Below, piece after piece: positions 7,989 to 34,900 of a DNA stretch of 64,000 bases. The notes under the pieces were generated by a model that had not been told where the DNA came from, searched no databases, and was given only the letters and a program-made list of their open reading frames with translations. Where the stretch lies: positions 806,001 to 870,000 of the forward strand of contig OZ025797.1 in assembly GCA_964019425.1 (NCBI GenBank), in the 5' to 3' direction. The stretch is from Flectonema sp. DT1601. Its lineage: Eukaryota. Position 1 is the first letter of the stretch, and each line of letters opens with the position of its first letter. Both the position numbers and the translations under genes were made by a program.

Positions 7989-10900
7989 TCATCCAACTGT
8001 ATCCCCACGTGGGGACATCTCACGTGTCTGAGTAGTACTCGCAACTGCTCCAAATACGTCTGTTGGTGAGTCATCAAGTTTCTTAGCACCTTCATAAGGT
8101 CGTATGAATACCCACCAGGTACCAAATAACATTATTACTAACAGTACTCCAGCTACAACAAAAATCAATACAAGTACAGCACCAGAAACTACATCTTCTG
8201 ATGATGTTTTAATTATGACGGGTACTTCAGTTGGTTTCTCTGTTACGACTGGAATCTCAACATCATCTCCTCCTGTTTTCGGATCTTTCTCAACATTAGA
8301 ACCCGTCACAATATGATACGGAGGTACGTAGTCACTGAATTCTCCAGAGCGTTGTGTCGCTGACTTGTTTGCTTCTCTGTTTTGATATTATTAGAAACCT
8401 CCCTTCTTGGCAATTAAAAGAAAACAATTATAACAATTCGATTTACAGTAAAAACACATACCCAGTCAAAGCTTCACTACATTCAAGCAGCTGAGAGGTG
8501 TTTCCGGTAAGTGAAATGTCAAGTGTTGTATTCTGTTTGTTTGTTTTATTATGTCTCGTCTTTTCGCAATAAATCACTAAAACTAAAAAGGATTTAAGTA
8601 AGTTAACATACATATATCAACCCATCCAAGGTCACTACAGATCTTGAAGCTCCAGGTGAGACGACACACTGTGACCATAAAGTCTTTGTTAAGTATTCAG
8701 GGCATACTCGAGAGACAGAGACTATGATATCGCTACACTTTAAGAGATTCAATATAATTGAAATAACGTCTTGAGGATTAACATTGATGGGCTGCTTTTG
8801 AATATGAATTCTATAAGTAGACGACAGAGACGACTGATCCGGTACATCAGTTTGTACAACATCAGGAGATACCGTCTGTGGTGTTGGAGTTACTGGAGGT
8901 GGTACTGTTGGTTTATTTGGTTTCCAATCTGAATCGCTACCCGTAAAGAAGACTGCTAATGTTGCTGGTAATCTTTCAACTTGGCAACTTGCTTTTCCGT
9001 TGCCAACATGTGCTGTGACAACACCTGTTTGACTCCACGTATTGTCCGATTCTTTTATCGCACAACTAAAACCTGTCGACAACATCTGATGCTGACATCC
9101 TTCACAAGTAATATCAATAACATGATATGACTTTTCTATTTCTGTAATATTCGGTGAGGCATTCTTGACACTCACGACTCCACTGACAGCTTTCCATGTG
9201 GAGGGAGTCAGGTAGACATTAGCAGAGCGACCCATCACAACAATCGAAAGCCATTTCTCCCCAACGGGATATTCAAGTTTTCCAAATGATAAATGAATTG
9301 AGAACTCATTCACAGATATACTTCTCTGAACATTACGACCAGCAGTCAAAGACAACTTCACAACAGATCCAACGTGTGCTCCAGCAAAGCCAGCAGGAGT
9401 AATGTAAGGCACTTCATTAGTAACACGACTTGCAAGGACTGCATAAAGAAATGCTTCCATCACGCTATCAATTGCAAGATTAGCTTCCATTGTACTCGCC
9501 GCAGATCTGTTGATTGACTGCAGATAATATTGCATATTACTAACTGCGCGCAGAGTATTACTTTGGAGAATCTCAGGATTTATATCAACGAGTGCATCCC
9601 AAGTAGGTAGTACCACTACAAGTAACTGACAACAGGTAATAATGTCACTAACTGATGTCACTGGAGTTACATCAGACAGCTGTGCTATTGCTGATATAAC
9701 TTGATGTGGTGACAGAATAATTCCAGATCGAATCTGAGCATTCTTCACATCCACATACTGTTGAAGTAATGATTTCTCTCCCCCAACCTGCAACACAGAA
9801 ACATGTCGACTGAGTCCCGTCCCAAGTAAAGTAGCTCTCTCAGTGTCTAATATGGCTGCACACATACTCAGGTAAGCGGATGGATCTCCACCTTGTTGTA
9901 AAATGCTATTTATCGACGCCATACAAGCGGCATTCGTATCAGTCGTGGGTGCTGCGGTCACATAAACAAAAGTTGCAATTTCCCCAACAAGTCCATTCGC
10001 ATCCCTCACTTCAGCTTTGATTTCAAGACCTTCAGGAGCTTCAGGAAGAATGATGTTACTCAGTACTGTTGCTGCTTCAAATCCATTTGTGAGGAGCTCC
10101 GTGGTACCCGGCAGGTAGGGCATTGTTGCAGGACGAATGTATGAAATTTGATAAGTAAAAGGTCCACTTCCAACTACTTCACCAACAGTGAATGTCCAGG
10201 GAGATCTTAAAGCAATTCCAACAGTAGTATCAGTCTCTGAGCAACCCATTATTGTTGATGTACATACTGCACTGAGTCTACTCATTTCTGGTGGTGCAAA
10301 AATATCAATTTCTCTTGTCGCGCACACCGGAAATACTCCAACTGCCGCGCATAACTCGAAGACATATCTCCCAGGCTCTAAGACCCCTCCGTTTACCTTT
10401 ATAACACGACTTCCTACTATTGGTGTAGAAGTCATCGTGTCTTGTAACTTCAATCCAGAAGGGGATGCTATTCTCCAATAGAACAAAGTATCAGAAAGTG
10501 GCAAGTTAGCACCGCCTGTCATGACAGTTGGAGTCATGTGACTTTGAGGGGCAGTGTCATGTGAAATAGTAACAACGAGATTAGGATCAGCGCTTTGATA
10601 AGATTCGTAACGATTAATAATTTCAGTGGTATCCTCCGCATGAGGACAAACATATATTTCATCAATCGCTACATTTGGAGTACCAATTCCAATCTCAAAC
10701 TCATGATCGCTTTCCGGTTGTAGAGGAGTTGAACTCAACGAAGCGCCGTCGCAAACCTGATTAACGCAAATAAAGACGTTGTTGCTCTTTATGATAGCCG
10801 TCAAGTACTGCCAACTGTTGGTGTTGAGAGCCTGCGTTGATGTAACTCTTGAACTGCTATCAACTTCAACAGATGGAAACAGTTGCTCATTCACTGGGTC

Positions 10901-13900
10901 AACGAGAATTGTGTACCCACGCTGTCCATTAGAATCTGTCAGCCGAATAAGTGGGCATCCTGACTGCGATATGCACCACTCGAAGGAATCGAACTTAACC
11001 CAAAACGAGACGGTAAGCTCTGGCCACCAGAACTTAGCTCCGTCAGCAGTAAATGTTCTCCCGTCGAGACGCATTGCATAGTCGGTGAGGCTGGGGCCGA
11101 ATGGTGAACTCTCAAAGTTAAAATCACCAGGTACTACTGATGATAACATGTATGGAATAATTAATCCTTCAACAGGAACAACTTGAACGTCACCCGATGT
11201 AGAATAGCTCTTCGTGAAGGAAACACTTTTAGTGGTTTGTTGCATGTGGAAGACGTAACAAAGTTCATTTCCGGTATCGTAACCAGCGTATTGAAGCGAA
11301 CATGTTCCAGCAGCAGCAGATGAACAAGCAACGGCAGTACAAGTATCATCCTGTCCTGGTAGATCACAATGAAGAACTTGAATAGGAACAGTTGTTCCAG
11401 AAGCAAGGAATCCATTTACAGCCATCGGGATAACAATCACAATAGCTGAGTCAGAAGTAGAAAGAATTGTTGCTTTACGAGTACCAACCTTTACAATAAC
11501 TGAACCGTCTTGGTTAGATAGCGGAAGATTCGCTCCTTCGATTACAAGTTGTCGACCTCCCTTCCAGTTTGACACTCCGGGAGATGTCTTTTCGATGATA
11601 CGAGTGTCAATAACTTGAGAGTACTTGCGAATCAAATCGCTGGTGGAGTAACCCTCATCACAGATAATTATTTCTTCTAAATTAGCAAACAGGAAGTCCG
11701 ATTGCGATACACCCTTTCCAATAGTCAGACTGCTGACATCAACATCCCATAATAGTGTTGGTGTAGATCTTATGATGGCAGACAAATCACAATTATTATT
11801 AACGCAAATTGAAATGTTTGAACTTGTTAACGACGCAGCTACAAAGTAATAATCATTCTTCAAAGTTCCCGTAGTAGATGACAACAACTCTGAAGAACTA
11901 ATTGAGTACACTTCACCACTACCATCGGACACAGAGAACGTAACAGAAGCAGTACTGGTAGCACCTTGTCTTTGAAGTGTTAAAGAGTAAGATGCTTGAG
12001 AAGATGTTTTGTGTAGGATTGTCACTACTCCGTTATCACTACCGAGGTTACTGAAAGCATTAAATCCTGGAATCTGAATCCAGACGATGATCGAAATATC
12101 ATCAACGAATTCAAAGTCAGCACTCGCAGACGACAACTGAGAACCGCTTTGAGTTGCTGCATCATAGCCGTTGAATTTGAATGCTGCTCCTCTGTCAGTA
12201 GTGACATACGCATCACAAGTGCAAAGAATAACAGTTTCACACCCACACTCTGCCGTAACAGTCGGAGACAGTGAGGGGTACATAGGACTTAGTGTTTGTT
12301 CATTAAATTGATAAGTATGACACATTGATGCAGGTTCTGGAGGTGTTTCAGAACAATCAGGACCAGAGTAACCAGTACTACACACACAGAATGCTACTTC
12401 AGTAAGAGGGTTTTCAAAACATGATCCGTGACTGCTACAAATAGTACCACTTGTTGTAACTCCCGGACATGGTGATGAACAAGATAATCCTTTCCATCCT
12501 GACTCACATGTGCAAACACCAGTTCCAGTAATGCCATCATTACAAGTTCCATGATGATTACAAACTTTACTATCAACTGTTGGACATTGTGATCCACATG
12601 ACTGTCCAAATGATCCCGCGAAGCAAATACACTCACCGTCTCCACCAATACCATCGTTGCACATTCCGCTATTGCAATTCAAACAAGGAGTGCAGGATGG
12701 ACCAAAGTAATTAGCAGTGCAGCGATCGCATAATTGTCCAGCAAAACCTGTGGCCCCACAATCACAACCTGTTGATGAACAACTTCCATGACCAGAGCAA
12801 GGCGCTGATATTGGAAGAGAGTTAATAACTAAATTAGCAGTAAATGTGTGCTGACCTTCATAGATATCTTCTAAAGTCACGTCGACAACAAATGTCTGCT
12901 TCCAGAGGGAAGCCGCATGATATTGCTCAACTCGTAAGTCAGAAAGATGAATATCTCCATTTGCTTCCATTATTGACATCAGTTCGGTACTATCTCCTTC
13001 GACATCATTTGACTTTCGAATACGTGAGATTCTAAAGGAATTCAGAATGGATGTATCAATTAATAACAATGGCACTCCATTAACAACATGAGACACGTAA
13101 ATTCTTCCAATTCGATCCCCTTTTATAAACTGTTGTCTGTCTGCAGTACTTGTGACGAATATCGCTGAAAATTGTGGTTGCTCAAGGCCAACCTCAATCG
13201 TGAGAGAGACAGTTCCGTCACATGACGACATTTCGATCTGATTACCAGCTGTGTAAGTACCAACGGAAACAGGACTGAATTGATAATCTGTCGCAATAAT
13301 GAGGGCTCCATTTGGGTACACATCCACTAGTAGTGTGTTTGTACCGCTCGTCAGTGAGATGGTTGTTTTCGACGAAAGTTGAATCCCGTTGATGCTGAGC
13401 ACAATACCACCTGAGTTGATTCTCCAATTGCGATCAGCCTTCGATACCAATCCGCGAGAAGATGGAACCGACAAGTGACTTCCCTCTCCAATCTTAACAC
13501 CAAATTTATATTCCGGACACTGCGGTAATGTTGTAACTTCTTCAGCTGGTTGTACTTTTAGATTTCTAAATATCGCATCCCTGCAGTCAAATGAGAAGAA
13601 TCCAGTCCTAGAAGACTCCAACAGCTGTAGTCCTAATGGTAGTACTCCGGAATATATCTTTTTATTGTCAGCGAATACAATTAATTGCTGAGTTGTTGGA
13701 TTAACGTAAGCCTCGATATATAAAGAAGTTTGTTCCAACTTATTAACTTCTTCATCAATCGCAAGTATTGTAACACCAGCTTGCGTCTCACCCATGAAGG
13801 CATTCGTCCAAGAAAGCTTTGTTTCAAATGTTCCCTTTAGTCGAGCGACAACTACTTCTGAGTTTCGTACAAATATTGTAACACAATCGACGTAGGTGTC

Positions 13901-16900
13901 TCGGAGTTCTTTTGGTGATGAAAGTCCTACAGTTAGTCCGTATGCACCCCCGTTGTTACTTTTCGTTACTTCACTTCCAATTAAAGCTGAAACTTGATAA
14001 GTTCCAGAAGTTGAGAAAGGAGTAACGTACCATCGAGGTGATATTGTTCCGACAGATAATTTTAATTTTGTAGAAGTTGAATCAGCTGATGGTTCAGGAG
14101 CTGCACAAGGTTCAGAACATGGACCAACAGTAAGGAGATTTCTCATATCAAGTGTTAGTTGAGAAGTGCTGACTGCTTTCGATGATTGCGGTGAAAGTAG
14201 AACAGCATTCTGAGTACATATCCATTTCTTCTTTGTACTACAAGGACTGTCAACCCACTTCTTCCTTCCCAGAGATCTGATGTGTGAAAGAGAAGCGCAT
14301 CTCCCGTAGTTGTCCGGGCGTCCATCTTGCCAGAAAGTCATCGACGGCTCTACATAATCCGTTCCTTCCCAATACCATCCATTCCACAATCCTGTTGGAA
14401 GCTGCAGTCCAAACCAAACATCATCACGTGAGAGCTGTCCAGCAAAGAGCGACTTTTCTTCAGCATCAAGTCTTCCTAATGCTGCACTCATACTGTGGCA
14501 TGACCAAAGAGCTTCTGACCAAGTTCCAACTGTGGTAGACTCTCTGTAACAAGTAGATCCTGATAAATGCCATCCACTACTACATTTATACTTAGCTCTA
14601 CAGTTAACTTCACATCCATCACCTGACCAGCCGTCTGTACAAATGCAGCTGCCAGTATCGGTACAGATACCTCGTCCGTTGCAAACACCAAAAGTTGAAG
14701 AAGAAGCTGGGCATTCGTATTGGCATTCTGATCCGACAAAGCCGGGATGACATTTACACTTTCCTTGTGTTTCATCACTGCATCGACCGCGACCAGAGCA
14801 TGGCTTCAGAATACCACCAGGACATTCCCCGTTACATGCTGGATAGGCGAACCTTCCAAAGGAACACACTCCACATGCAGTTCCCGTAACATAAGGATTA
14901 CTACATTGACATCCCTCAGATGAACACAAACCCTGACCAGAACATATTAAAGGTTGCTCACTAGACATTGATGCTAAGTAATCAGTAGTACTGCAGGCAC
15001 ACCCAACAGGTAGGTTACAACTACTCGACACTGGAATGCAAGTATCTCCACAAGGGATTGTTCCGACTGCGCAAACAGAACAACAAATTCTCTGCGCAGG
15101 AATTGCAGTGAGACAAGTCTTTGTGCATCCAGTGCCGTAGTGGTCGCTGTCGCACGTGCACTCTCCGGAGCCGGTTCTGCCATGTGAACAGGTTCCTTTA
15201 TTGTTGCAAACAGAATTTGGATATCCGGGGCATCGACCTCCGCACCCTGGCCCAAAGGTACCTTCAGGGCAGTCACATATTCCAGTTGTGGAATCCAACG
15301 GATTTGGTTTGCATCGATTTTGATCTCCACAAGCAACTTTCTCATTTGGGTCAGAAGTCGGTACATTACCAAGAGGTGTAAAGGGCGGAGGCATCAGAAA
15401 TGATAGAGGCTGCTGAACTGCGAGATCTAATGACCTCACGGAATCAAAAAATAAAACCTCTACATCAGAACTGCTGCCATCAATAGGACCACCCTGTTCG
15501 TAGTCAACTGGAATGGCGCACCTCATTTGACAATTAGTCGCTGCAATCCATCCTTCTGATACTTTACAAATCTCACAGTTAGTACCTGACCAGCCAAAGG
15601 AACATGTGCATGCACACTTATTCAACTCTTCATCAACGTGAGCCGTTCCTCTATTTCTACAAAAGGAGTCGGTGCACTGACAGGAGTACTCTGTTCCAAT
15701 ATTTGTTGGAACTAATGTCTGATCACAATTAGTACAATCCGCATTGAATCCAACAGGACAGGAATCACAAGCTCCACTACTGTCACTTGTTGAAGTTGGC
15801 ATCCAGAAATCATAACAGCTGCAGCTATTGCAATCACCTGATAGATTGTTTTCATACTGCAAACAAATACCGTGACCATCACATACTGGTATGCAGTCAG
15901 GGTAGTTATGATATCCAACAGCACACCTGTCACAGTTATTGAGAACATCAGAGATGTAATTAGAAGGACATAATTCACAACTATGACCAGTCCATTGATT
16001 TAAACAAGTACACTCACAAGAGGATCTTAATTGATTACTTGTTACTGTTGATGAATGTGTTGGACCATTACATGAGATTGATAATTGACATTCGGTACAA
16101 ATATTTTCAATTGGATCAAAGACCCATCCTTCAAGACAAACACTACAATCACTTTCAGGATCGAATCCGAGTAAGCAGCTGTTACAGTTTGCAGACGACT
16201 TCCAATTATTACGACAGGTACACGTGCAGCTATCGCTATTAGTGTTTGATGTTACGGATATCGCATTTGAGTTACAATGAGTTGTTACATCACAAATAAT
16301 ACAATCAGGGTAATTAATAAATCCAACAGCACATGAACTACACTCAATATTCGATCCGAGTGGTGCAGCAATCACAAAGTTTGAAGGACACTGACTACAA
16401 TCTGATGATGTCCAAGAACTACTACAACTACACTCACAGCTACTCTTATCTAAAGCACTTTCAACTGATGTAGCGTGACTGCTACAATGTACTTCTACAT
16501 CACATAAAATACATTCATCGTTACTCCATGAGTATCCCGTAGCACAAGTATCACAATTAACACCTGAGTACTTACTAGGACAAGTCTCACATTGTATTCC
16601 TGTCCATTTATTCTCACAACTAGTGCAGGTACAAACAGCCTGGTCTGTACCATCCTGAGTGATTAAACCATCAATTGAAGTACCTCTGTTATTACAGTGA
16701 TCTTGTGATGTGCACATTAAACAACGAGGGTAGTCACCAAATGATAAAGTTGTTGTTATTGCATTCCAAGAAGTAGCGCAGTTGTTGCAATCAGATCCCG
16801 TGAATCTCGATGAGCAAACAGAACAGTGAGGACCTGACCAACTATTCCTACAGGTGCATATACATTCATCATTTAGTGAAGACACAGAAATAGCGTGGTC

Positions 16901-19900
16901 ATTGCAGTCACTTGTTTCTAAACATTTCCTGCACGTTACTCCGACATAACCCGAAGCACATCCAACACAATTATTATTGACATCATACTTTGGAGGACAT
17001 GTTGAACAATCGTCTCCAAACCAATTACCTGTACAATCACACACACAGTCATCAGCTCCATCGTTTGCAATAACAGAACGTGCATTAGATGAACAGTGTT
17101 GGTGAATATCACAAATAGTACACTCTGGGTAATTAATTCTGTTGAATGAGCAGGTCTGACAATTAGAATCAACCGAATAACGTACTGGACAATCACTACA
17201 AGATTCACCTGACCATTGATGTTGACAAACAGGACAGCTACATGACAATCCATCACTCGAAACTAAAGCAGCGTTACCAGAACAGTGAATGTTGTTAGTG
17301 CATAAAGAACAATCACCAGAAGGAAGCATTTCAAATCCTTCCTTACAACTCTGACAGACAGTTCCTTGGTAAGGATGAATACAATAATCACAATTCGCTC
17401 CCGTAAACCGATCAGGACACTTGCACAGACAATCTGTTTGTGAAGTAGTCGATACGATTTCAGCACCACCTGCAGTGTTACAAGCTGAAGTGATAGATTG
17501 ACAAGAGTCACAGTTTGGATAATTAATATGACCAGTCTTACATTTATTACAAGCTGCTACGTACTTTGAAGTATCGCAAGTGTTGCATCTATCTCCAGTC
17601 CATTGATCTGAGCAAGTACAGATACACTGAGTTCGTTGAAGATTCGCAGTAACAGAATGAGCGTGTGAGTTGCAATCAACTCCAATAGAACATTCTTCAC
17701 AAATATTATTATCTGTAATAACATAACCAGGAACACATGTAGAACAGACTTGTTCATCATCTTTAGCATACGGAGACTCACAACCGTCACAGTACTTGCC
17801 GGAATATTTAAAGGCGCATCCTGCATTTGGATCGCAGATGCATTCGTCGTTTGATGTGATTATCGAAATACAATTCTTTAAGTGAGGGTGTGTTAGTAAA
17901 TCACAATAAGTACAAACTGGGTATTGAACATAATTAGTTTTACAAACTCCACAATCAGATGAACTGTCGAAGCGATTATCACAAATAGAACAAGATGGAC
18001 CAGACCACTGATTGCGACAGTTGCATTGACACTCGCTGTTTATTTCAGATACTGATAAAGCATTACCATTACAATCTGTAGCTACATCACATGGTCGACA
18101 AGTCGGGTATTCAACGTAACCAGATTCACATTTAGAACAACTGCCTCCTGTAAAACCAACTTCACAATTACATTTGCAGGTTCCTAAGTTGCTGTTAGCA
18201 GTAACCGCAATAGCATTGCCGCTACAACTCGAGTCGACGCTACAAATAACATCACAACTTGGGAAGTTCAAAACGTTATCAGCACACGCAGTACAATCAC
18301 TGTTGAATGCAGTTGGTGAAGTTCCGCAAGATTGGCAACCAGAACCAGTCCATGGGATTACACAAGAACACAGACAGGCAGCATTATTTAAAGTCTTTGA
18401 ATAACAACTTGTAGCTATATCAATACTATCCGATACTATTGATTGAGTTATTGAATAGTCTGAACAGAACAATGAATTCCATTCTAATAAATTATCTGAT
18501 TGTGGAATCGTATCGCTGTGAACAATACATTCCATACGATCAGTGTTATAAGAAACTCCTAAACATTCTGACTGACAATGTTGAATACATTCCTCGAGTG
18601 TTGTTGTTGATTGTTTTGCCCATCCTGAGGCGCATGAAAACTCACCAAAACACATTCCACTTCCAAGTCGTTTAAAATAATTAGTAACTTGACCAACTGT
18701 AACTGATGAGCTGTGAAGAAGTCCATTGCAATCAGTAGAAGTGCTGCATAAACTACAAACACCACTTGGTAGTAATAAATGATTATAACCGCACTCATCA
18801 CAGTTACTACCTGAGTATGGGTAAGGACAGATTGAACAATCGACTTCAGACCATTGATTGTCACATTCACAAACACATATCCCGTTGAGTGATTTAATTA
18901 TTCCACGACCTGAGCACAGAGTTGCGCTATCGAGTTGGTCGCATTGTTTACAAAATGGAAATGGTGAATCACTTCCTGCAGCACAGGAGTTACATAAATT
19001 ATTATTTTGATCAAATATATCTGGACAGGTGTTACAACTACTACCCGACCATCCATCAATACAGACTCCACACTGACATTCAGACTGGTCAGAGGTCGTA
19101 CTTATTGTTAAAGAATGACTGTTGCAGTGAATGTCGATATCACACTCTACACAATTCGGATATCCAATCATTCCGTGAGCACATCTATCACAATTATCTC
19201 CAACAAAAGGATACGGACATATCGAACAGTCATATCCAATATATTGACCAACACATTCACATTGACAACTTACTCCATTAGTTGTCGCAGTACCATGTGA
19301 TGAACAATATGTTGAATCGCATACTTTACAATTTGGATATCCAAAGTAAGATTGAGAACAAGAATTACAAGTAATTTGATTATAAATAATTGGACATTGT
19401 GAACAGTCAGTGCCGTACCAATTATCAGAACAGCTACAACTACAATGAGATCTGCTAGAGTCATGAGTAACTGATAAAGCATGACTACTACAATGATCAG
19501 TAGTCGAACACTTAACACAGGATGGGTAACCAATTCTACTATTCGCACATCTGTTGCAGTTTGTTCCTCCGTACTCCGCAGGGCAAGTTGCACAACCAAC
19601 ACCCGTCCACTGATTGTTGCATTCACAGCGACAATTAGCTTCAGTCGCATTAAACCAAACACTTACCGCTTGATCATTACCTGAACAGTGTTGATCGATA
19701 CTACACTGCGTGCATTGTGGGTAGCTGATGTAACCGAATGCACATTTATCACACATTTCACCCGAATAGTTTTCAGCACATTCACAGATGCAGGAATTCC
19801 TTGAAGGAGATGAAGAAACAGAAGTTGCAGTAGAAGAACAGTGAACATCAATTGAACACTTTATACACGACGGGTAGTTATGATATCCATCTGCACACTC

Positions 19901-22900
19901 TCCGCAATCAGCCAACAGATTGTACCTTTCGGGGCAGGTGTTGCACATCGTTCCTGTCCAGTTATTCTTACAAAGACAGTGGCAGTTGTTATCAATAACC
20001 TGTACAGATAAAACTCCCTCACCACATTGATGAGTACTACAAGAAATACAGTTAGGTGGTAAGCCATAGTAACCTGAAGCACACTCGGAACACGTCGTCG
20101 CATCTAAAGTTGTGGGGCAGCTGTCACAAGTGGAACCAATCCAATTTCCAGAACATTGACAAATACAACCTGACGACGTCGGATTTACTATCGCCGTTCC
20201 GTGAGCACAAAGAGAAGAGTCGCACGGTAAGCAAGTCGGATATTCAAATCGACCGGCAGCACAAGTGTCGCATCCGTCTCCCTGAAAGATTTCTGGGCAC
20301 TGCTCACAGTACTCTCCAAACCATTGACCTCTACAGGAACATATGCATCCTTCTGCTTCTGTGAAAATAGCTGTTCCACGGCCCTCTATGCATTGTCTTT
20401 GAACGCTGCACGGTACGCAAGCATTTTGAAGATTTCTGACGTAGCCAGAAGCGCAGTTAGTACATTCAGTTGCGTCATATTCCATCGGACATTCCGAGCA
20501 AGTCTCACCAGACCAAAGACTGCTGCACTCGCAGATACATTGCGTGTTGTCTAAGTTACTCATCGTAGACGTGGCGTGGTTAGTACAGTGAACTGATATC
20601 TCACATCTGATGCAACTTCCTCCAACTGCTGCTATGAAACCAACTGAGCACTGGTCACACCGAGAGCCTGCGTAGCCTTCATCACAAGTACAGGTGCAGG
20701 CAGTTTGATCTAAATTAGTACCAACTACTCCATGATCATTACAACTATTTACTGAAGTACATTCAATGCAACTGTTGTTTGTGTCATGAATCCAATTTGA
20801 TTGACAAGAAGAACAAACATCTGATAATCTGTTCTCTGAACTGCATAGTGCGCACCCCCCTGCTGGTAAGTTGTAACCAGCAGCACATGTTGAGCAGCCT
20901 GTCGTCGCATCAAACTGACGAGGGCAGATACCACAATTAGGACTGAGGTAATTTGCTAAACATTCACATTCACAAGTAATCCCATCGGTAGTAGAAACAG
21001 AAGCAGCTCTTCCATTACAGTTGACATCAATAGAGCACTGAGAACAAGTTGGGTAATTTAATAAACTCATACTTGTTGTAGCACAGCTATCGCAAGTGAT
21101 TTGATTATATCTTTGTGGACAGGACTGACACTGAGTGCCATCCCACTGATGGTCACAAGTACATGTGCAAGAGAGTCCATCAGATGACGGCCAAGCAACT
21201 CCGTGATTATTACAGTGAGTGCTGCTGCATTTTTCACATGTTGATATCGATGTCGTTACTTTTTTGAAGTAACCGCCAACCTGATCACATTCACTGCAGT
21301 CAGTTCCTTTAAAACCAGGTTTACATTCACAACTACATTCTGAATTACCTCCGAATGATGTAACTGATAAAGCATTATTACTACAATGAGTACTAACAGA
21401 ACAACTAATACAACTTCCATCGACATCAAGAGTGTATCCTCTGATACAAACACTACATGTTGACTCATCGTAACCCGTTCTACAAATATCACACTTTGAT
21501 CCCGTCCAGTGTGACTTGCACTGCTCACAAACGCAGGTCAATAAGTCAACAGAAGGAATAACTAAGAGTCCATTATTATTACAATACGAAGGGTCTGTAC
21601 AGTCTACAGGTTCTACTCCGCTTGTAGGGGCGGCAATAGAACAGTCGAGACCAGACCAGTCTGGTAGACAATCACAAACACAAGTATTACTCTGTGTTGC
21701 TGTTACAGACACAGCTCTGTTACTACAATGATCTGAGTTAGTGCAGAGTGTGCATCCACCCAAAGAGTTTGTTATGTAGAGTTGTGATGAATCACATGTA
21801 CTGCAATCATTATTGTATCCTTCTGGGCACTGTTCACATTGATCTCCGTACCAGTTATCGTTACAAGTACACAAACAAATTGTATTGAGACTGTTACTGA
21901 ATGCTATTCCATTTTGATTACAATGAGTGAAGTCAGAACAGATAATATCACATTGTGGATATCCAATAAATCCATTCTTACAGGTGTCACAGTTTCCTGT
22001 AATGATGTCGTATTGAAGTGGACAATCATCACAATAGTCACCAGTCCATTGATGATCACATGAACACTTACAACCACCTTCGATATTGTTTCTATCTGCT
22101 GAGGGTGTTCCCCTGCCGTTGCAGAAGCCAAGCTCTGATAACTGGCAGTTAGAGCAGCCTTCACCTTTTGTAGTTTCGTAATTCATAAATCCAGGACTGC
22201 AGGCGGCGCAATCAAGCGCATCGTTATACCTCGTTGGGCAGATATTACAAGAGTCTCCAGTCCATTGGTTTCTGCAAGTACAGACACATCCATCTTGCGC
22301 AGTAGTTGTCGTCACAGCAGTCGCTCTGTTATTGCAGTGAGCTTCACTAGTGCATCCTCCACATATTGGATAGTTAACATAACCTGATCCACAACTGTCA
22401 CAATTATCTCCTGTGAATTGGGACTTACAAATAGAACAGTCAAATCCTGACCATTGATTATCACATTCACAGACACATGAATCTCTTTGAGATGATGAAG
22501 AGATTACTCTGCCGTTTCCAGAACAGTGGACAGCGTCGTCGCATTGCGTGCAAGTCGGGTAATTAATAAAACCAGGAAGACAATCAGCGCAATTCAGAGT
22601 TGGATCGAATGGTGAAGGACACGTACCGCACGCAATACCACTCCAATGGTTGGAACAACTGCAGTCACAAGTAGCTGTTAGTACTCCATTCCTACAAGAA
22701 GTTGAATCACATTGTGTACACATTGGATAATTTGTGTGATAGTCAGCACACTTATCACAGTTAACTCCGTCAAAGTTTGATGGACATGTCTGACATTTCA
22801 TTCCAGACCATCCACCAACACAATTACAGATGCACTCTGTTTGTGAAGGGTTTGTTCCAATCACAGCACCATTAGCATTAGAGCAGGCTGATGCTAAAGT

Positions 22901-25900
22901 AGAACACTCAACACAGTTCGGGTAATTAATTCTACCCACACCACATCTACTACAATCAGATGACTCATCAAACTCTGATGAGCAGATTGTACACTTTGAT
23001 CCTGACCACTTGTTCCTGCAGTGACACTGACAGCTATCATTGATATCGTCAATACTAATAGCAATCGCATTCTCACTGCAGTCTACAACATTGCAAAGAG
23101 TGCAGGTGGGGTATTGAACTCTTCCAGCTGCGCACTTGTCGCAGTCAGCAGCGTCAAATTGCGGGGGACAGACAGAGCAGTCAAAACCAGTCCATTGAGA
23201 TCTACATGTGCACAAACACTTGTTGTCATTTGTTCTAACTACTGCTTCAGCATTCTGCGCTCCCGAACAGTGAGTTGCCAAAGTACACTTCTCTGTACAA
23301 TCTGGTAGTAAGAATAATGAAATACATTCACTACAATCTAATCCGGTGAATCCTGATCTGCATGTGTTACAAGATTCCCCAGCCCAGTTACCACTACAAG
23401 TGCAAAGACAGTTTCCGTTAGCCGATGAAACATCGTCAGCGTTACCGGAACAGTCAACTGCGACGTCACATTTTCGGCATACAGAGTTTTGCTGTACGAA
23501 ACCCGTCGCGCATTCGACGCAATCACTTCCCCTTGTGTAGCCTTCAGGACATGTCGAACAGTCTGTTGAGGCCCATTTGTTTCTGCAGGTGCAGATGCAG
23601 CCGCTGTGTTGTGACATAGTTGGGTGAGTATGTGTGAATGATGACACTGTCGTGGCGTGGTTAGAACAATGGACATCAATAGAACACGGAACACAGTCTG
23701 GGTAGTCAATGTAACCTGGTGAGCAACTATCACAGGCAGAACCCAGGTAACGTTGCTGACAAGTACACAAACAAACTCCACCTTCTGCGATAGTTGAAGC
23801 AGCATGACCACTACAATCTGTTAAGGAGTCACACTGTCTGCAGTTAGGAAACCCAACATAGTTATCAAGACATCCATTACAGTTCTTATTACTATCGAAT
23901 GGTTCTGCACATGTTTCACAAGAAGAACCTGTCCATTCATTTTGACAACTGCAACCACACGTTTCTTGATCTTGTTTCTTAATACTTTCAACAGCATTAC
24001 CTGAACAGTGAATATTAACATCACATAATACACACGATGGATAATTTAATCTATTAGGTCCACAGCTGTTACAAGAATCAGAAAACTTACTAAAGTCACA
24101 TTCGGAGCACTTGTTTCCTTTCCACTGGTCAGAACATGTGCAGATGCAGCTGCTGTGGATGTCATCAGATACAACAGCTGTTGCATGCCCACTACAGTGA
24201 TAATTTATAATACATTCTCCACATTGTGGATAACCAGTTCTTCCGACTGTACACTCTCCACAGTTCTTTGACGCATCGAATATCGAAGGGCAGGTTTCAC
24301 AATTTGCTCCAGTCCATTGATTCTCACAATCACATACACAAACAGTTCTCGAAGGATTAGAAGTAACAGTTGTCGCTCTTGAATTACAATAAGCAGATGA
24401 TGTACATTCTTCTGTACATCCCTGAGAGTAATTAATGAACTTAGTAGAGCATTTGTTGCAGTTGTTACCTTCAAAGTTGTCGGGACAGGTTTCACAAGAA
24501 GTACCTGTCCAGTAGTTGTTACAGACACAAGAGCATTCAGTCATGTCAGAGTTTGTAGTGGAGACTGTTCCATGTGATGAACAACTGATTTCATTTGTAC
24601 ACTTTGTACAATCTGGATATAAAATATGCATTGATGCACACTTTGAACATCCATCATTTGAATTATATTTTTGAGGGCATGTTTGGCAACTTGAACCAGA
24701 CCACATTTCATCACAATCACACACACACACCAAATGCATTCCACTTGATGTTACTTGTGATGCATGTGAACTACAATGTTTATCAATACTACAATACTCA
24801 CACTCTGGATAATTAATATATCCGTCAGCACACTGTGAGCAGTCTGATGAAGACACGAAGTTTAACGAACACGTTTGACATGAAGAACCACTCCACTGAT
24901 TCCTGCAACTGCATTCACAAGTTGGGTTTACACCACCTGGTGAAGTGACACCAACAGCGTGATTTGAACAATGGCTTGCTATGTTACATGGAAGACAACT
25001 ATGACCGTAGTATCCAATTTTACACTCATCGCAGGTTGTTCCTTTCCATCCAGTGCTGCAAGTACAAACACATTTATCATTATACTCATCAGATGTAACA
25101 TGTGAAGCATGTCCATTGCAGTTAATATTATTATCACACATCACACATCCTAATTCATATTTCACATATCCAACAGCACACTCATTGCAGTCAACACCGC
25201 TAAACTTCGGATGGCAATATGAACAGTCAGCTGTTTCCCAACTATTTCTACATCCACACAAGCATTTGTTTTCAGATACGATTGATGAAACAGTAACAGC
25301 ATTACCATTACAATTAGCAGTCTTTGTGCACTCAACACAAACACCATCAACTTCAATACATCCAACTTTACATATTGGTACTGCTTCTGAACAGTCATAA
25401 GTACCTGGACAACTATCACACCTGTCTCCAATATATGGATGTTTGCACTCACAAGAACAGCCATTTGACTCGACGATACTCGAAACAGAATGACCATTAC
25501 AATAGGAGTCATCACAAGTCACATCGCAGTCAGGCCAGTTGAAGATGTGCGCCGCACACTCACTGCAACCAATGCCACCGTAATTCGTAGGACACGACTC
25601 ACAACGAGCGCCAGTCCACGGGAATGAGCATCCGCTACACGTGCAGACCAACGGATTCTCAAACGAATCCGTCCCAACAACACTCGCACGACTGTTGCAG
25701 TGCTGCACATTCGTACACAGCAAACAGTCCCCATTGGCCTTCACGTATCCTTGAGCACATCCATCACAAACATCTCCCACTTCCCGGAACCGCACAGGAC
25801 ACTCTTCGCAGTCACTCGCCTCAACCCACCTTCCCGTGCAGCTGCAAGTGCACCTCGTGCGGGCAGCATTCGACGTCACAGACGAACTGTGTCCGAAGCA

Positions 25901-28900
25901 ATCATTCTCAACAGAGCAAGCCCTGCACGAAGATCCCGCAACAACGTACCCCACAGCACACAGCTCGCAGCGTGACCCCGCGTATCCTTCGTTGCAGGCA
26001 CAATCACACTCAGTCTGTGCCCCATTTGCACTCGCCACTCCGCGGCTTCCGCAGTGAGCGTCCCCACGACACTCCTCACAAAGCTCGTTGTATCCGCTCC
26101 CGAGGATGTGGTTGCTCGCACACTTCCCGCATCCTCCGTTCGTGTCACGGGCAAACGTCGCAGCACACTCTCCGCAAGCCAATCCCGTGTAACGGGTCTT
26201 GCATTCACAGTCACACTGCGTCTTCAGCCCATTCACTCCCCAAGATTTCGCATTCCCGTTGCAGTTCCCGACATTCGTGCACATCCCACACGTCGGGTAG
26301 TCGTATCGCTCCGCCCCACACTCCCTGCAGTTCGCAGTAACGTCGAATTCACTCGGGCAGTTGTTGCAGCTCGTCCCCGTCCACTGGTGCACACACTTCG
26401 TGCAAGTGCAAGTCAACATGTTCATGTCCACCTCAATCACACCGTCTGACCTGCTGTTGCAGTGGTCCTCGCTCGTGCACTCGTCGCACACGGGGTATCC
26501 AACACGTCCTCCCGAACACGCGTCGCAGTCCGATCCCGCGAATCGTCCAGGGCACGTCCCACAGAACTCACCTGTCCACTGCGTCCCTGCCTTGCAAGTG
26601 CACAAGCACACGTTCCCGTCACTCGTCACAGAATCCGCGTGACCGTTGCAGTCCCCAGCCACCGTGCACTGTCGGCAACCCGGGTACTCCACCCTCCCCA
26701 CAGCACAGCTCCTGCAGTCTGGATCCACGCTGTAGATCTCCGGACACGTCGAGCAGTCCAATCCCGTCCACTGGTGTCGGCAGTCGCAAGTGCATCCATC
26801 GATCCCTGCTGCGTGGTTCGAACAGTCATCTTCAACAGTGCAGCGAGTGCACGTCGGGTAGTCACGGTAGCCATAAGCACAAGCATCGCAGTTTCGACTG
26901 CTGTCGAAGCGAGTCGGGCAGTAGTCACAAGTGTATCCCGTCCACTGCGCAACATCGCAGTTGCACACGCAGATTCGACTCGCGAACCCGACAGGTGTTT
27001 GGGTTTCCGCTGTCGACGCCCTTCCATTGCAAATAGCATTCGTGCACGGCTCGCATGTCGGGTAATTGTCTAGACTCGACGGCGCACATGTGTCACAGAG
27101 TTCAGTCTGCTCGTACCTAACCGGGCACCGGCCGCAGTGGTTGCCTTCCCAAGAGTTGTCACAATCGCATTCACAACCATCACCATCAACATTAGGAGCG
27201 GAAGTTCCATGATTGTTGCAGTCAGAAGCCACACACAACCTGCAGCCCATAGAAGATGTCGCGCTACCGGCATACCCCATTGCAACATCGCACACACCAC
27301 ACGTCGACCCGGTGTAACCTTCCGAACAGCTACAGAGGCAGGAAACCCTCCCAGGATTTGGTGATGCTGTCCCGTGAGAGTTGCAGTGATCCCCAGATGA
27401 ACAGATCTCAACACACCTACTTGAATACCCAATTCGGTTCCCAGAACACACATCACAGTCTGTTCCTCCGAACTCGAGTGGACACAGAGAGCAATCGTCT
27501 CCACTCCACATGTTCCGACATTCGCAACCGCACACCCGTTGAAACTCGTCGGCTGTTGACGTAGTCGCATGTCCCCAACAGTGAAACTCAGGAGTGCACA
27601 ACGTGCATCCATGGACCGGATCATCAACGTGGTTGGCAGCGCACCTATCACACTGAGTTCCACCGTACCGTATCTCACATGTGCCGCAATCAGTGCCACT
27701 CCAGTAGTTGCTACAGGTGCACTCACACGCAGTGTTGCCAACATTTGAAGTTGATCTAGTTGCGTGACCAGAACAGTGACCAGAAATGGTACACTTTTGA
27801 CATCCACTCGCGATATCGATGTGCCCAACAGCACACGAAGTACATCCGCTGGAGAATGCGAAGCCAATCTTGCAGCTTTCGCATGTTGGAAGTGCCCAAT
27901 TTCCTTCACAAGTACAGAGACAGTTCAGGTTTCCAATGGCTGAAGTTACAGAAACAGCGTGTCCATGACAATGACCAGATGAAGTACAAGCAGTGCATTC
28001 ATCGAATGTAATGTATCCCACTGTGCAGGAGTTGCAATCCTCGTTGCTGTCGTGTTTGGCTTCACACAGTTCACAACTATCTCCGTGCCACTTGTGCTTG
28101 CAGTTGCACACACAGGCATCATGTGCCTGGTTAGATGTTGTTACATAGGCATGTGCAGAACAGTGAGTAGTGACATCACACTCATTACAGGATGGGTAGT
28201 TGATGTACCCAACTGCACACTGGCCACAAGTAGTACCAGCAAAACCTATTGAGCATGAGCACACACAGGAAGTGTGCTGAGTGTTGCTGTATAAAGAATC
28301 AGCATTACCATTACAGTGAGAAGTTATATCACACTGAACACAATACTCAATCCCATCTTCAATATATCCATCTGCACATGTCAGACAATCAGAAGAATCA
28401 AATCTTTGATCACAAGAAGAACAGCTGTCACCATGCCAGTGGTCATGACATGAACAACCACAAGCAGCATGATTTGCGTTTGCTGCTGCAGCACCATGGG
28501 AATTACAATGTTGAGAAGGGTTACAAACTTCAACACAATTATTCGGGTAGTCAATGCGGTCACCTGAACAACGATCGCAGTTTATTCCACCAAAAGCACT
28601 CGGACAGATATTACACGAAGGCCCTGACCATTTATTAGAACAACTGCAAACACACGCTGTGTGCCAGTGATTAGAAGTCACATCAGATGCATGAGAATTA
28701 CAGTGATCTGCAACTGTACACAATCCACATTCCGGGTAGTTCCCGGAGTAACCTTCGGCACATTGACCGCAGTTTTCGTTCGAATCGAATCTTTCAGGAC
28801 AGGTTTGACATTGAAGTCCAGTCCAACTATTTTTACATTCACATTCACAATAAATGTGATTATCATTTGATGTTGAACTGTGTGAGTGTTCAGTTGATGT

Positions 28901-31900
28901 ACAGTGTGTTGACACATCACATACTTCTTCACAACCTGACTCATATCCAATACGACCATCAGAACAGCTACCACAGTAAGGTCCAGAGAACTCAATTGGA
29001 CATACACTGCAGTCAGCACTTGACCATTTATTTGAACAACTACAAACACATTCAGTTGGATTACCATCGACATCATTCTCAGTGCCAGTAATAATTCCAT
29101 TATTAGAACAATCATGAACAGTACATAGTCGGCATTCAGGACCTACTCTGTTGGTACCACATTCTGTACAATCTGATGACACGGTAAAACGTTGGTCACA
29201 AGTTGCACAAAACAAGCCGAGCCAGTTTGCTTTGCAATCGCAGGTACACTCCAAACCGTCTTCAGACGACTGTACATTGACCGCATTGCCTGAACAGTTA
29301 GCAGTTGCCTCACATAAAATACAACTCGGATATCCATATCTGTTATCAGCACAACTATCACAAGATGATGAATAAATATCTGAACAGTCACTACAAATTG
29401 AACCCTCCCACTGGTCAGCGCACGTACAAACACAACCATCGTGCAGTTGATTACTAATTACAAACGATGAGTGACCACTGCAATGTGTTGCAGAGCTACA
29501 TGGATCACATGAGGGCCAGTTGATAAATCCTAGAGAGCATCTCTCACAAGCGGCACCTTCGAATCCAAAAGTACACTCACAGACACATCCTGAATGATCA
29601 TCATTGCTAGTGATATAAACAGCTCTGTCATTACAATCAATTACTGAAGAGCATCTCCTACAATTGTTATCATTCACAACATAATGAGTTGCACAACCAC
29701 TGCAGTCATTTGCTACCTCATATTGAACTGGACAGCTAACGCAACTTCTATCATCTTGCCATTGACTTCTGCAACTGCATACACAGCGATTCTCAGCAAC
29801 ATTTGAAGTTACACTAATCGCATTATTATTACAATTACTACTAACAGTACATGCAACACATAGTCCATCAACTTCAATGTATCCAACTGAGCAGATTGGA
29901 ATAATACTTGAGCAGTCGTATCCAACAAAACAAACACCACAAGTATCTCCCTTGTATGGATGCCTACAAGTACACTTGCAATCATTGTTTTCTACTACAC
30001 TTGTTAAAGAGTGACCACTACAATAGGAGTCATCACAAGTCACATCGCAGTCAGGCCAGTTGAAAATACTTTCCGCACAAGTATTACAGCTAGGCCCTCC
30101 GTAATTCGAAGGACACGACTCACAACGAGCGCCAGTCCACGGGAATGAGCATCCGCTACACGTGCAGACCAATGGATTCTCAAACGAGTCCGTCCCAACA
30201 ACACTCGCACGACTGTTGCAGTGCTGCACATTCGTACACAGCAAACAGTCCCCATTGGCCTTCACGTATCCTTGAGCACATCCATCACAAACATCTCCCA
30301 CTTCCCGGAACCGCACAGGACACTCTTCACAGTCACTCGCCTCAACCCACCTTCCCGTGCAGCTGCAAGTACACCTCGTGCGGGCAGCATTCGACGTCAC
30401 AGACGAACTGTGTCCGAAGCAATCATTCTCAACAGAGCAAGCCCTGCACGAAGATCCCGCAACAACGTACCCCACAGCACACAGCTCGCAACGTGACCCC
30501 GCGTATCCTTCGTTGCAGGCACAATCACACTCAGTCTGTGCCCCATTTGCACTCGCCACTCCGCGGCTTCCGCAGTGAGCGTCCCCACGACACTCCTCAC
30601 AAAGCTCGTTATATCCGCTCCCGAGGATGTGGTTGCTCGCACACTTCCCGCATCCTCCGTTTGTGTCACGGGCAAACGTCGCAGCACACTCTCCGCAAGC
30701 CAATCCCGTGTAACGGGTCTTGCATTCACAGTCACACTGCGTCTTCAGCCCATTCACTCCCCAAGATTTCGCATTCCCGTTGCAGTTCCCGACATTCGTG
30801 CACATCCCACACGTCGGGTAGTCGTATCGCTCCGCCCCACACTCCCTGCAGTTCGCAGCAACGTCGAATTCACTCGGGCAGTTGTTGCAGCTCGTCCCCG
30901 TCCACTGGTGCACACACTTCGTGCAAGTGCAAGTCAACATGTTCATGTCTACCTCAATCACACCGTCTGACCTGCTGTTGCAGTGATCCTCGCTCGTGCA
31001 CTCGTCGCACACGGGGTATCCGACACGTCCTCCCGAACACGCGTCGCAGTCCGATCCCGCGAATCGTCCAGGGCACGTCCCACAGAACTCACCTGTCCAC
31101 TGCGTCCCTGCCTTGCAAGTGCACAAGCACACGTTCCCGTCACTCGTCACAGAATCCGCGTGACCGTTGCAGTCCCCAGCCACCGTGCACTGTCGGCAAC
31201 CTGGGTACTCCACCCTTCCCACAGCACAGCTCCTGCAGTCTGGATCCACGCTGTAGATCTCCGGACACGTCGAGCAGTCCAATCCCGTCCACTGGTGTCG
31301 GCAGTCGCAAGTGCATCCATCGATCCCTGCTGCGTGATCGGAGCAATGCTGTTCAACAGTGCAGCGAGTGCACGTCGGATAATCTGTGTAACCATAAGCA
31401 CAGATGTCACACGTTGCCTGATCAAATCGCGTTGGACAATAATCGCAGGTATAACCTTTCCACTGCGCAACATCGCAGTTGCACACGCAGATTCGACTCG
31501 CGAACCCGACAGGTGTTTGGGTTTCCGCTGTCGACGCCCTTCCATTGCAAATAGCATTCGTGCACGGCTCGCATGTCGGATAGTTGTCTAGACTCGACGG
31601 CGCACATGTGTCACAGAGTTCAGTCTGCTCGTACCTAACCGGGCACCGGCCGCAGTGGTTGCCTTCCCAAGAGTTGTCACAATCGCATTCACAAACATCA
31701 CCATCAACATTAGGAGCGGAAGTTCCATGATTGTTGCAGTCAGAAGCCACGCACAACCTGCAGCCCATAGAAGACGTCGCGCTACCGGCATACCCCATTG
31801 CAACATCGCACACACCACACGTCGACCCGGTGTAACCTTCCGAACAGCTACAGAGGCAGGAAACCCTCCCAGGATTTGGTGATGCTGTCCCGTGAGAGTT

Positions 31901-34900
31901 GCAGTGATCCCCAGATGAACAGATCTCAACACACCTACTTGAATACCCAATTCGGTTCCCAGAACACACATCACAGTCTGTTCCTCCGAACTCGAGTGGA
32001 CACAGAGAGCAATCGTCTCCACTCCACATGTTCCGACATTCGCAACCGCACACCCGTTGAAACTCGTCGGCAGTTGACGTAGTCGCATGTCCCCAACAGT
32101 GAAACTCAGGAGTGCACAACGTGCATCCATGGACCGGATCATCAACGTGGTTGGCAGCGCACCTATCACACTGAGTTCCACCGTACCGTATCTCACATGT
32201 GCCGCAATCAGTGCCACTCCAGTAGTTGCTACAGGTGCACTCACACGCAGTGTTGCCAACATTTGAAGTTGCTCTAGTTGCGTGACCAGAACAGTGACCA
32301 GAAATGGTACACTTTTGACATCCACTCGCGATATCGATGTGCCCAACAGCACACGAAGTACAATCGCTGGAAAGAGCATATCCAACCCTGCAGCTTTCAC
32401 ACGTTGGAAGTGCCCAATTTCCTTCACAAGTACAGAGACAGTTCAGGTTTCCAATGGCTGAAGTAACAGAAACAGCGTGTCCATGACAATGACCAGATGA
32501 AGTACAAGCAGTGCATTCATCGAATGTAATGTATCCCACTGTGCAGGAGTTGCAATCCTCGTTGCTGTCGTGTTTGGCTTCACACAGTTCACAACTATCT
32601 CCGTGCCACTTGTGCTTGCAGTTGCACACACAGGCATCACGTAATAAATTCGTAGTGACATATGTCGCGTGACTGGAGCAGTGAACATCAATATCACACT
32701 TATTACAAGATGGGAAGTTGATATAACCGACAGCACACCTTTCACAAGTGAGCCCAATAAAACCTGTTGAACATGAACAAATACAGGAAGTGTGTTGTTC
32801 GTTGCTGCCAGTAAAATCAGCGTTACCGTTACAATGAGTTGTGATATCACACTGCACACAATGGTCGATACTATTTTGGATATATCCATCTGCACATGTC
32901 AGACAGTCAGAAGAGTCAAACTTCGGATCACAAGTAGCACAATTAGTTGCAACATGCCAGTGGTTATCACAGGTACAGTCACATGCAGTGCGTAAAGTAT
33001 TTGGTGTTGCCATTCCGTTAGAATTACAGTGCTGTGATGAACTACATATCTCAACACAATCATTTTGGTAGTCAATACGATCTCCTGAACATTCGTTGCA
33101 GTCGATGCCACCAAATTCTTCCGGACAGACTGCACACGCAGATTCGGGACCAGTCCACTTATTAGTACAGCTGCAAACACACGCTGTGTGCTGCTCATTT
33201 GAAGTAACAGTCGAAGCATGTGAACTACAGTGATCGATAGTTGTACACAATCCACATTCCGGATAGTCTCCTGTGTAGCCTGCAGAACACTGACCGCAAT
33301 CTTCGTTTCTGTCAAATCGCTCAGGGCACGACTCACATCTATCTCCTGTCCAACTGTTACGGCAGTCACATACGCAAGATACTCTGTTCGCATTGGATGT
33401 TGCGGAGTGTGCGTGATCTTCAAAGCAATGAGATGCTGTTGTGCAAACTTCAACACAGTTGCTGTCGTACCCAATGCGACCTAGAGCACAAGTATTGCAA
33501 TCTGCTCCTGCAAACTCTTGTGAGCAAATACTACAATCAGAACCAGACCATTTATTATTACATTCACAAGTACAAGACGTATGTAAGTCATCTGTTCCAG
33601 TAGGTGTTCCATGACTAGAGCAGTCTGTAGGTACACAAAGTCTGCATGTGGAACCAATTCTGTTTGCTGAGCATTTCAAACAATCGGATTCTTCGGTATA
33701 TTGAACAGTACAGGTTTCACAATAATCACCACTCCAGTTATTACGACAGTTGCAATCACACACCTGACCTTCTTCGGATGAAACAGAATTGTGAGCGTGA
33801 TCAGAACAATTAGCACTCGGTGAACACAATATGCAATCCGGGTAGTTAAATCTATTTAATGAACATCTATCACATTCACTACTAAATAATGATGAACATT
33901 CATCACACACATCACCACTCCATTGATCAGAACACGTACACAAACAAGATGTGTGCGTAAGATCTGAAGTTGTTAACGAAGCGTGTGTTGAACAATGAAC
34001 ATCTGATGAACATAAAACACAGTTCGGCCAATTAATAAAACCAATGTCACACTTCTCACAGTTATTACCAGCAAATCCAACATCGCACTGACACAAACAT
34101 ATACTGTGTTCATCATTACTACTAACACCTGATTGCTGTGCGTGACTATTACAATCAATTTCTGCTCTGCATTGCCTGCAGTCACTTGCTTCAGTAATAT
34201 AACCGGTTGCACATCCACTACAATCATTAGTTATTTCAAATCTAGTTGGGCAAGTTGAGCAGTCGCTTTCTTCTGTCCATTCATTTTTGCAGCTACAAAT
34301 ACAACGATTCTCTGCCACATTTGAAGTCACACTAACAGCATTGCCACCACAATTATCAGCTACTGTGCAGACAACACAATTACCTTCTACGTCAACATAT
34401 CCAATTGAGCAGATTGGAGTCTCACCTGAGCAGTCGTAGCCCAAAAGACAACTACCACACTTAACTCCAATATATGGATGTTTGCACTCACAAGAACAGC
34501 CATTTGACTCGACGATACTCGAAACAGAATGACCATTACAATAGGAGTCATCACAAGTCACATCGCAGTCAGGCCAGTTGAAGATGTGCGCCGCACACTC
34601 ACTGCAACCAATGCCACCGTAATTCGAAGGACACGACTCACAACGAGCGCCAGTCCACGGGAATGAGCATCCGCTACACGTGCAGACCAATGGATTCTCA
34701 AACGAGTCCGTCCCAACAACACTCGCACGACTGTTGCAGTGCTGCACATTCGTACACAGCAAACAGTCCCCATTGGCCTTCACATATCCTTGAGCACATC
34801 CATCACAAACATCTCCCACTTCCCGGAACCGCACAGGACACTCTTCGCAGTCACTCGCCTCAACCCACCTTCCCGTGCAGCTGCAAGTACACCTCGTGCG

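Follow-up and report, generated by a model that had tools for sequence, protein, structure and literature searches.

Layout of the reading frame and its relatives

On the minus strand of the window analysed here, a 64,000-nucleotide stretch of contig OZ025797.1 from Flectonema sp. DT1601 (GC content about 40%), a stop-free frame extends from 64000 to 8603 and encodes 18,465 amino acids (aa), its 5′ end being open at the window edge. An earlier note on this DNA had described a polycystin-1-like region with REJ and GAIN domains at the base of a giant stalk, and the noted stretch is indeed the C-terminal foot of one minus-strand open reading frame (ORF) that counts 18,465 codons or more. A chance ORF or a wrong frame was considered as a reading and rejected. 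The features of this ORF and of the exons predicted to follow it are listed below; P0003, P0004 and P0005 are related proteins that are introduced after the list.

14585..64000, minus strand: Cys-rich stalk, about 16,470 aa in the window, 5′ end open; EGF/laminin-EGF-like by Cys pattern only
14210..14584, minus strand: C-type lectin domain (Pfam Lectin_C, E 4.2e-10, 40.8 bits, cut-off 22.6)
12803..14071, minus strand: Cys-poor region, probably two to three beta domains (no Pfam or PDB sequence match)
12338..12802, minus strand: short EGF array (Pfam EGF_Teneurin, EGF_2, EGF)
10598..12310, minus strand: LamG, IPT/TIG, LamG (Pfam Laminin_G_3 in two stretches, TIG; same order as in P0004)
9950..10588, minus strand: partial REJ-like module of about 215 aa, two predicted FnIII-type beta domains (alignment to the P0004 REJ, FnIII matches)
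9425..9949, minus strand: GAIN subdomain A, helical (seven predicted helices; GAIN matches cover model residues 277-563)
8936..9424, minus strand: GAIN subdomain B, beta sandwich with terminal GPS-like motif (Cys 9064, Trp 9037, Cys 8986)
8966..8971, minus strand: Leu-Pro at the place of the scissile Leu-Thr/Ser bond, Arg at -2 (structural alignment; Leu-Pro also in P0003)
8828..8932, minus strand: first Pro/Thr linker (sequence)
8612..8827, minus strand: small alpha/beta domain, first part, possibly SEA-like (colinear in P0003; no Pfam match)
8533..8611, minus strand: predicted intron 1, 79 nt, GTATGT...AAACAG, 27% GC, ends uncertain
8462..8532, minus strand: predicted exon, 71 nt, 42% GC, completing the small domain
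8377..8461, minus strand: predicted intron 2, 85 nt, GTATGT...AAACAG, 27% GC (ends the same in the best-scoring join)
7989..8376, minus strand: predicted last exon, with second Pro/Thr linker, one membrane helix (8192-8103), 37-aa cytoplasmic tail and stop

A Pfam scan covering the last 1,999 aa of the ORF recognised Lectin_C (E 4e-10), EGF families, Laminin_G_3 twice (E 5e-12) and TIG (E 2e-6), which bears out the C-type lectin, EGF and LamG-IPT-LamG domains previously read by eye, while the label "ConA-like" for 14071-12803 found no match in Pfam or among PDB sequences. Nothing in Pfam matched the last 665 aa of the ORF. The REJ and GPS families gave no direct match in the last 1,999 aa at E ≤ 1, a 61-aa GPS fragment gave no Pfam GPS match at E ≤ 10, and no PKD repeats were detected by Pfam.

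When the 555-aa REJ-GAIN region was compared by phmmer with 1.84 billion representatives, two matches were obtained, P0003 (E 2e-49, 33% identity) and P0004 (E 8e-9), and no animal REJ protein was retrieved in this or the other homologue searches. P0003, a Hemistasia transcript protein from EukProt (Hpha_TRINITY name) whose record of 1,040 aa is probably a fragment, is the closest relative found; it aligns with the foot at 28% over 850 columns and is laid out as LamG, REJ, GAIN, linker, small domain, linker, one helix and tail. The alignment to P0004 (25% over 1,144 columns, E 1e-61) starts in EGF, takes in LamG-IPT-LamG and reaches the helical region. P0004 passes the Pfam REJ cut-off (33.5 bits, cut-off 25, profile positions 263-450 of 452), and P0005, a member of its C-terminal cluster, passes that of GPS (37.4 bits, cut-off 22.5). 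The REJ module located 5′ of the GAIN domain is partial and aligns colinearly with the part of P0004 that Pfam recognises as REJ. REJ and GAIN were assigned in the window because these two relatives pass the Pfam models and because the predicted fold, described below, matches GAIN; by this route the REJ, helical region and GPS-like motif of the earlier note are supported indirectly.

The best three Atlas matches were REJ clusters from ciliates, Euglenozoa and chlorophytes (scores 0.87-0.88), to be taken as a lead only. Word-index homologue searches provided no usable relative (one LamG-only match, P0007, was set aside), and PDB sequence searches gave two chance matches and otherwise none. None of 136 pattern matches in metagenomes and none of 93 in viral contigs was confirmed as a related locus. 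In P0004 and P0005, which have an intact H-L-T GPS, a whole LamG domain is inserted in GAIN subdomain B just before the GPS; the record of P0004 stops before any helix.

Predicted fold and cleavage site of the GAIN domain

An AlphaFold model of 563 residues, built from a three-sequence alignment, showed beta domains followed by seven helices and a beta sandwich. GAIN structures occupied ranks 1-5 of the 53 Foldseek matches at E ≤ 0.001 (E 1e-6 to 5e-6), and the domains preceding GAIN were of the FnIII type. A VIA comparison with 48,161 chains placed GAIN domains at ranks 1, 2, 4, 6 and 7, the top two being BAI3 (Z 10.9) and latrophilin-3 (Z 10.6) with 235-236 aligned residues and a root-mean-square deviation (rmsd) of about 6 (best row 6.3); unrelated helical proteins (Z 9.8 and 9.4) were interleaved with further GAIN rows. 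In a second look with VIA, GAIN took ranks 1-6, and model residues of about 45-225 matched FnIII domains (Z 7.7-8.8), in agreement with the modelling of REJ as FnIII domains cited in PMC1934368. No PKD1-family chain was among the fold matches listed by Foldseek and VIA, which is not an exclusion. The foot is thus predicted to carry FnIII domains and a GAIN fold.

At the end of subdomain B, the motif ERLPAT (8977-8960) stands in place of H-L-T/S, as had been noted, and both inner GPS cysteines are Val. The GPS Cys-Trp-Cys residues are kept in the window protein, P0003 and P0004, and the three share a Leu five residues past the last GPS Cys, with identical Cys-to-Leu spacing. The VIA alignments end with model residue 552, the Leu of ERLPAT, paired with residue 837 of latrophilin-1 chain A and with residue 566 of GPR110, which we take to have the same scissile role as latrophilin-1 L837. 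In latrophilin-1, L837 is described as the scissile residue, T838 as the nucleophile and H836 as the likely base (PMC3321182). The corresponding tripeptide is R-L-P in the window, A-L-P in P0003 and H-L-T in P0004; in a register drawn from structural and sequence alignment, H-L-T/S at the scissile bond is thus absent from the window GPS. The residue following the Leu is Pro, or Ala/Val if a one-residue insertion is allowed, and a nucleophile is found in neither register. Since no nucleophile follows the scissile Leu, self-cleavage would not be expected, and the modelled GAIN domain is likely non-cleaving.

The replacement of two consensus Cys by Val had also been put forward as a sign of non-cleavage. 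The residues are as described, but the argument was rejected, because P0004 and P0005 keep H-L-T and yet lack the inner Cys pair; GPS motifs with 2-4 cysteines have been described (PMC9672506). Because P0004 has its domains in this order and yet keeps an intact site, the dead site would be more simply explained, judging from sequence, as a later loss, and for the same reason the suggested bearing on how polycystin and adhesion G protein-coupled receptor (GPCR) ectodomains arose is limited.

Membrane end, stalk and neighbouring genes

The ORF itself ends at 8603 without a membrane helix. A hydrophobic helix is present at 8192-8103 in a different frame, and is reached only by predicted splicing of two introns of 79 and 85 nt, which share GTATGT...AAACAG ends and 27% GC and flank a 71-nt exon of 42% GC. 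The spliced model is colinear with P0003 through helix and tail. Among 1,885 two-intron joins tested against P0003, the best score was 145, as compared to 105 among 57 single-intron joins. Only one hydrophobic peak above 1.9 was found in the 18,615-aa spliced model, and one in P0003, pointing to a likely single membrane helix. The single membrane pass claimed in the earlier note therefore stands as a prediction, although the helix is located outside the noted region, in another frame, and needs splicing.

The end of the GAIN domain lies about 190 residues from the helix, as calculated from coordinates. No PLAT/LH2 domain follows the helix, the model having a 37-aa tail and then a stop, and none was found in P0003 by Pfam. 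Instead of 11 helices with a channel-like part, one helix was found in both the model, where it rests on predicted splicing, and P0003, in agreement with the previous claim that a channel is missing. A seven-transmembrane region directly after GAIN was likewise not found, this place being taken by the linker of about 190 aa with the small domain, and then one helix.

A wrong gene model, be it a secreted protein with its end at 8603 or one to which further exons add helices, appears very improbable. A few hydrophobic stretches do occur in other minus-strand frames (7989-6924), and the join enumerations ended in the helix exon by construction. However, P0003, which is derived from a transcript, runs colinear through small domain, linker, one helix, tail and stop, the two introns match each other in GTATGT...AAACAG ends and in GC content (27%) around an exon of 42% GC, and the DNA downstream of the stop (30-48% T, mostly low GC) resembles a 3′ untranslated region (UTR). 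Over about 1.6 kb after the stop (6340-7988), the minus strand is T-rich and non-coding, with pyrimidine tracts, as in a long 3′ UTR.

The small alpha/beta domain that had been noticed between GAIN and membrane is colinear in P0003, but its fold is only weakly SEA-like (Atlas rank 9, score 0.81; no Pfam match). In an alternative reading, the ectodomain is still cut and shed elsewhere than at the GPS Leu, either in this domain, where a protease of the host would act on a basic loop, or at a Thr/Ser located at Pro+2. The domain is kept between GAIN and helix in both relatives, the same loop contains Arg in the window protein and Arg-Arg in P0003, SEA was a weak Atlas match, and a Thr/Ser is kept at Pro+2; it is in a loop of this kind that cleavage of SEA-type domains takes place. 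On the other hand, the SEA fold has neither a Pfam match nor a usable P0003 model (pLDDT 32.9), the domain is devoid of G-S-V-V-V, the SEA motif, and the conserved Thr/Ser aligns with the second Thr of H-L-T-T-F in P0004 and not with the nucleophile. We therefore regard shedding by these means as unlikely.

Upstream of the foot, the stalk comprises about 16,470 aa within the window, about 15% of them Cys, and its commonest motif spacing is 60-64 aa (66 of 181 intervals). Pfam recognised little of it, with no family in two of four chunks. N-glycosylation sites (N-x-S/T) are depleted about 11-fold, 19 being present versus 221 expected, and the count never fell below 191 in 200 shuffles that kept Cys in place, while D-x-S/T and shifted controls were at expectation. 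When Cys at +2 was excluded, x-S/T followed 19 of 1,008 Asn versus 241 of 873 Asp. The foot contains 4 such sites versus 16 expected, three neighbouring proteins were not depleted, and P0004 is enriched (40 versus 22.5 expected). This avoidance suggests a translated protein that passes through the secretory pathway and has been selected against N-glycans.

The stalk also contains five blocks of about 1.8 kb that are 92-97% alike (approximately 49.5-51.4k, 40.7-42.6k, 34.3-36.3k, 29.8-31.7k and 25.3-27.2k), with a third-position GC of about 0.6 versus 0.26-0.31 in the rest of the ORF, and a 3.3-kb duplication (25487-28780 and 30008-33307). These, whose codon bias is distinct, may have arisen by recent expansion or through gene conversion. 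Synonymous differences matched or exceeded replacements in the three in-register comparisons of four (20/21, 22/11 and 28/13); the fourth was out of register and was dropped. Of the Cys-poor islands on the minus strand, 43180-44920 matched F5/8 type C weakly and below the cut-off (E 0.0055), and 48340-49000 appeared PAN/apple-like by eye only.

Downstream, four smaller minus-strand ORFs (4581-6335, 2825-3874, 1144-2610 and 3-416) had no significant Pfam family. Two of the four have a hydrophobic anchor at their start, as type II membrane proteins do, and the ORF at 2825-3874 was helical-repeat-like by eye. Runs of co-oriented genes and GT-AG introns have been described in Diplonema (PMC10161547). 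The co-orientation of the genes here and a single best match, to the Hemistasia protein P0003, form the basis on which a probable diplonemid source, likely marine, is proposed.

Comparison with known systems and proposed function

Membership of the PKD1 or adhesion-GPCR families was rejected on the grounds that no PLAT, 11 helices or seven-transmembrane region follows GAIN. In architecture only, the window protein resembles SpREJ1 in its lectin, REJ and GPS domains, its one predicted helix and the lack of an 11-helix channel part; SpREJ1, which has lectin domains, SpREJ8 and SpREJ9 are described as single-helix REJ-GPS proteins of the PKD1/REJ family (PMC1934368). SpREJ1, as reported there, has 1,450 aa with a REJ of 545 aa, whereas here only two FnIII-like domains precede GAIN, LamG-IPT-LamG is inserted, the stalk exceeds 16,000 aa, the GPS reads Leu-Pro and lies about 190 aa away from the helix. 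Polycystin-1, PKD1L1 and PKDREJ share the order REJ then GAIN, and the latter two are also described as lacking the H-L-T/S tripeptide (PMC9672506), but the window protein differs from this family in having no PLAT, no 11 helices and no channel part.

Adhesion GPCRs (BAI3/ADGRB3, latrophilin-1, GPR110, CELSR1) gave the best structural matches, with a helical A and a beta B subdomain and the scissile Leu in register, and BAI3 also has Arg at -2. Unlike them, the window protein has no seven-transmembrane region and carries Pro at the nucleophile site, and its GPS does not adjoin the helix, whereas adhesion GPCRs as well as PKD proteins are said to have their GPS immediately before the first helix (PMC3321182). 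Outside animals, more than eight GAIN domains in Tetrahymena and others in Dictyostelium (PMC3321182), and a REJ with GPS in Ectocarpus Esi0130_0068 (PMC4700764), have been reported; the protist REJ/GPS proteins described in these sources combine REJ and GPS as here, but either their cleavage sites are conserved or they possess 6-7 helices. P0004 shares the order EGF-LamG-IPT-LamG-REJ-GAIN and differs by its H-L-T, the LamG within GAIN B and its richness in N-glycosylation sites, while P0003 shares layout, single helix and Leu-Pro, with Ala at the His/Arg position.

With SpREJ1, SpREJ8, SpREJ9, PKD1L1, PKDREJ and the Tetrahymena GAIN domains as precedents, the proposal of a new receptor class was not supported. 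Single-helix lectin-REJ-GPS proteins, non-cleaving GPS motifs and protist GAIN domains are known already, but the combination seen here looks undescribed: no diplonemid REJ-GAIN protein or Leu-Pro GPS was found in a literature search that was not aimed at giant protist surface proteins or at avoidance of N-glycosylation sites. New here are the natural Leu-Pro site, the distance of GAIN from the membrane, the size of the stalk and the 11-fold avoidance of N-glycosylation sites.

We consider it probable (roughly 65%) that this gene of a diplonemid-like protist encodes a single-pass, giant, Cys-rich protein for adhesion or for the coat at the cell surface, in which the predicted GAIN domain stays uncut and acts as a structural, load-bearing joint and not as a switch for release. 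In such a type I surface protein, REJ-GAIN would form the joint beneath a very long disulfide rod, and the chain would remain intact for want of a nucleophile after the scissile Leu. Because there is no seven-transmembrane region or channel, and because about 190 residues separate GAIN from the helix, tethered-agonist signalling in cis would not be expected. With a span of 2.5-3 nm per stalk-type unit, the approximately 260 units of the stalk would extend perhaps 0.6-0.8 micrometre and keep an N-terminal head, beyond the window, away from the cell, while the lectin and LamG domains could bind glycans or neighbours near the membrane. The GAIN domain may also buffer tension through partial unfolding; GAIN B is described as unfolding partially under force, also in the non-cleavable ADGRB3 (PMC13197933).

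Several points weigh against this reading. The AlphaFold model has a pLDDT of 52.6, with 244 of 563 residues below 50, the GAIN matches have an rmsd of 5.5-6.7 Å, and the model of whole P0003 (pLDDT 32.9) was unusable. The structural register is read from a rough model and from alignment ranges that give end points only, and the GPS segment alone gave no significant BLAST match with P0005 (best E 13). T838P is reported to unfold latrophilin-1, which makes a natural Leu-Pro GAIN unusual and means that the kink must be built differently here; BAI3, despite its Arg at -2, is reported to be cleaved in brain, so that a missing His alone proves nothing (both PMC3321182). The Thr/Ser at Pro+2 is kept in both relatives. 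The splice sites are predicted without read support, the chosen join (score 130) ranked only 50th of 1,885, for which reason the ends of intron 1 are uncertain, and exon 2 alone was not significant against P0003, 169 of 2,000 shuffles being as good. Finally, signal peptide, ligand and location are outside the evidence for this reading.

The protein could alternatively signal in trans, as a polycystin-1-like ectodomain that pairs through its helix with a PKD2/TRPP channel or a seven-transmembrane protein and senses force. Chlamydomonas PKD2 reportedly binds mastigonemes and a single-pass partner, which we count as a precedent. A single-pass Cirl isoform is described as pairing with seven-transmembrane Cirl (PMC13197933), and SpREJ1 antibodies are reported to raise sperm calcium (PMC1934368). 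However, no PLAT, coiled coil or conserved motif is evident in the 37-aa tail, and the last GAIN strand lies about 190 aa from the helix, so that we judge such a role improbable.

To return to the load-bearing joint, a more far-reaching and doubtful version, which we offer tentatively, is that diplonemids use REJ-GAIN as a purely mechanical joint, with a GAIN that folds despite Pro in the nucleophile position and lies about 190 residues off the membrane, a SEA-like domain possibly serving for shedding, and a micrometre-scale disulfide rod nearly free of N-glycans, among the largest single-chain surface proteins.

For polycystin-1 and adhesion GPCRs, it is not settled whether GAIN needs self-cleavage and what it does without a seven-transmembrane region or channel. 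If the mechanical-joint reading is true, the window protein would provide a natural test case for GAIN without cleavage or tethered agonist, and the natural Leu-Pro GAIN of two distant relatives, together with the cleavable-looking P0004 of like domain order, forms a matched pair on which folding and the response to force can be studied. The origin of polycystins or adhesion GPCRs is not explained by the window protein alone. Euglenozoa-like protists join the lineages in which REJ-GAIN serves surface proteins as a portable foot, and these data draw attention to a giant protein of coat or adhesion type, as yet unstudied, from a marine group that is abundant.

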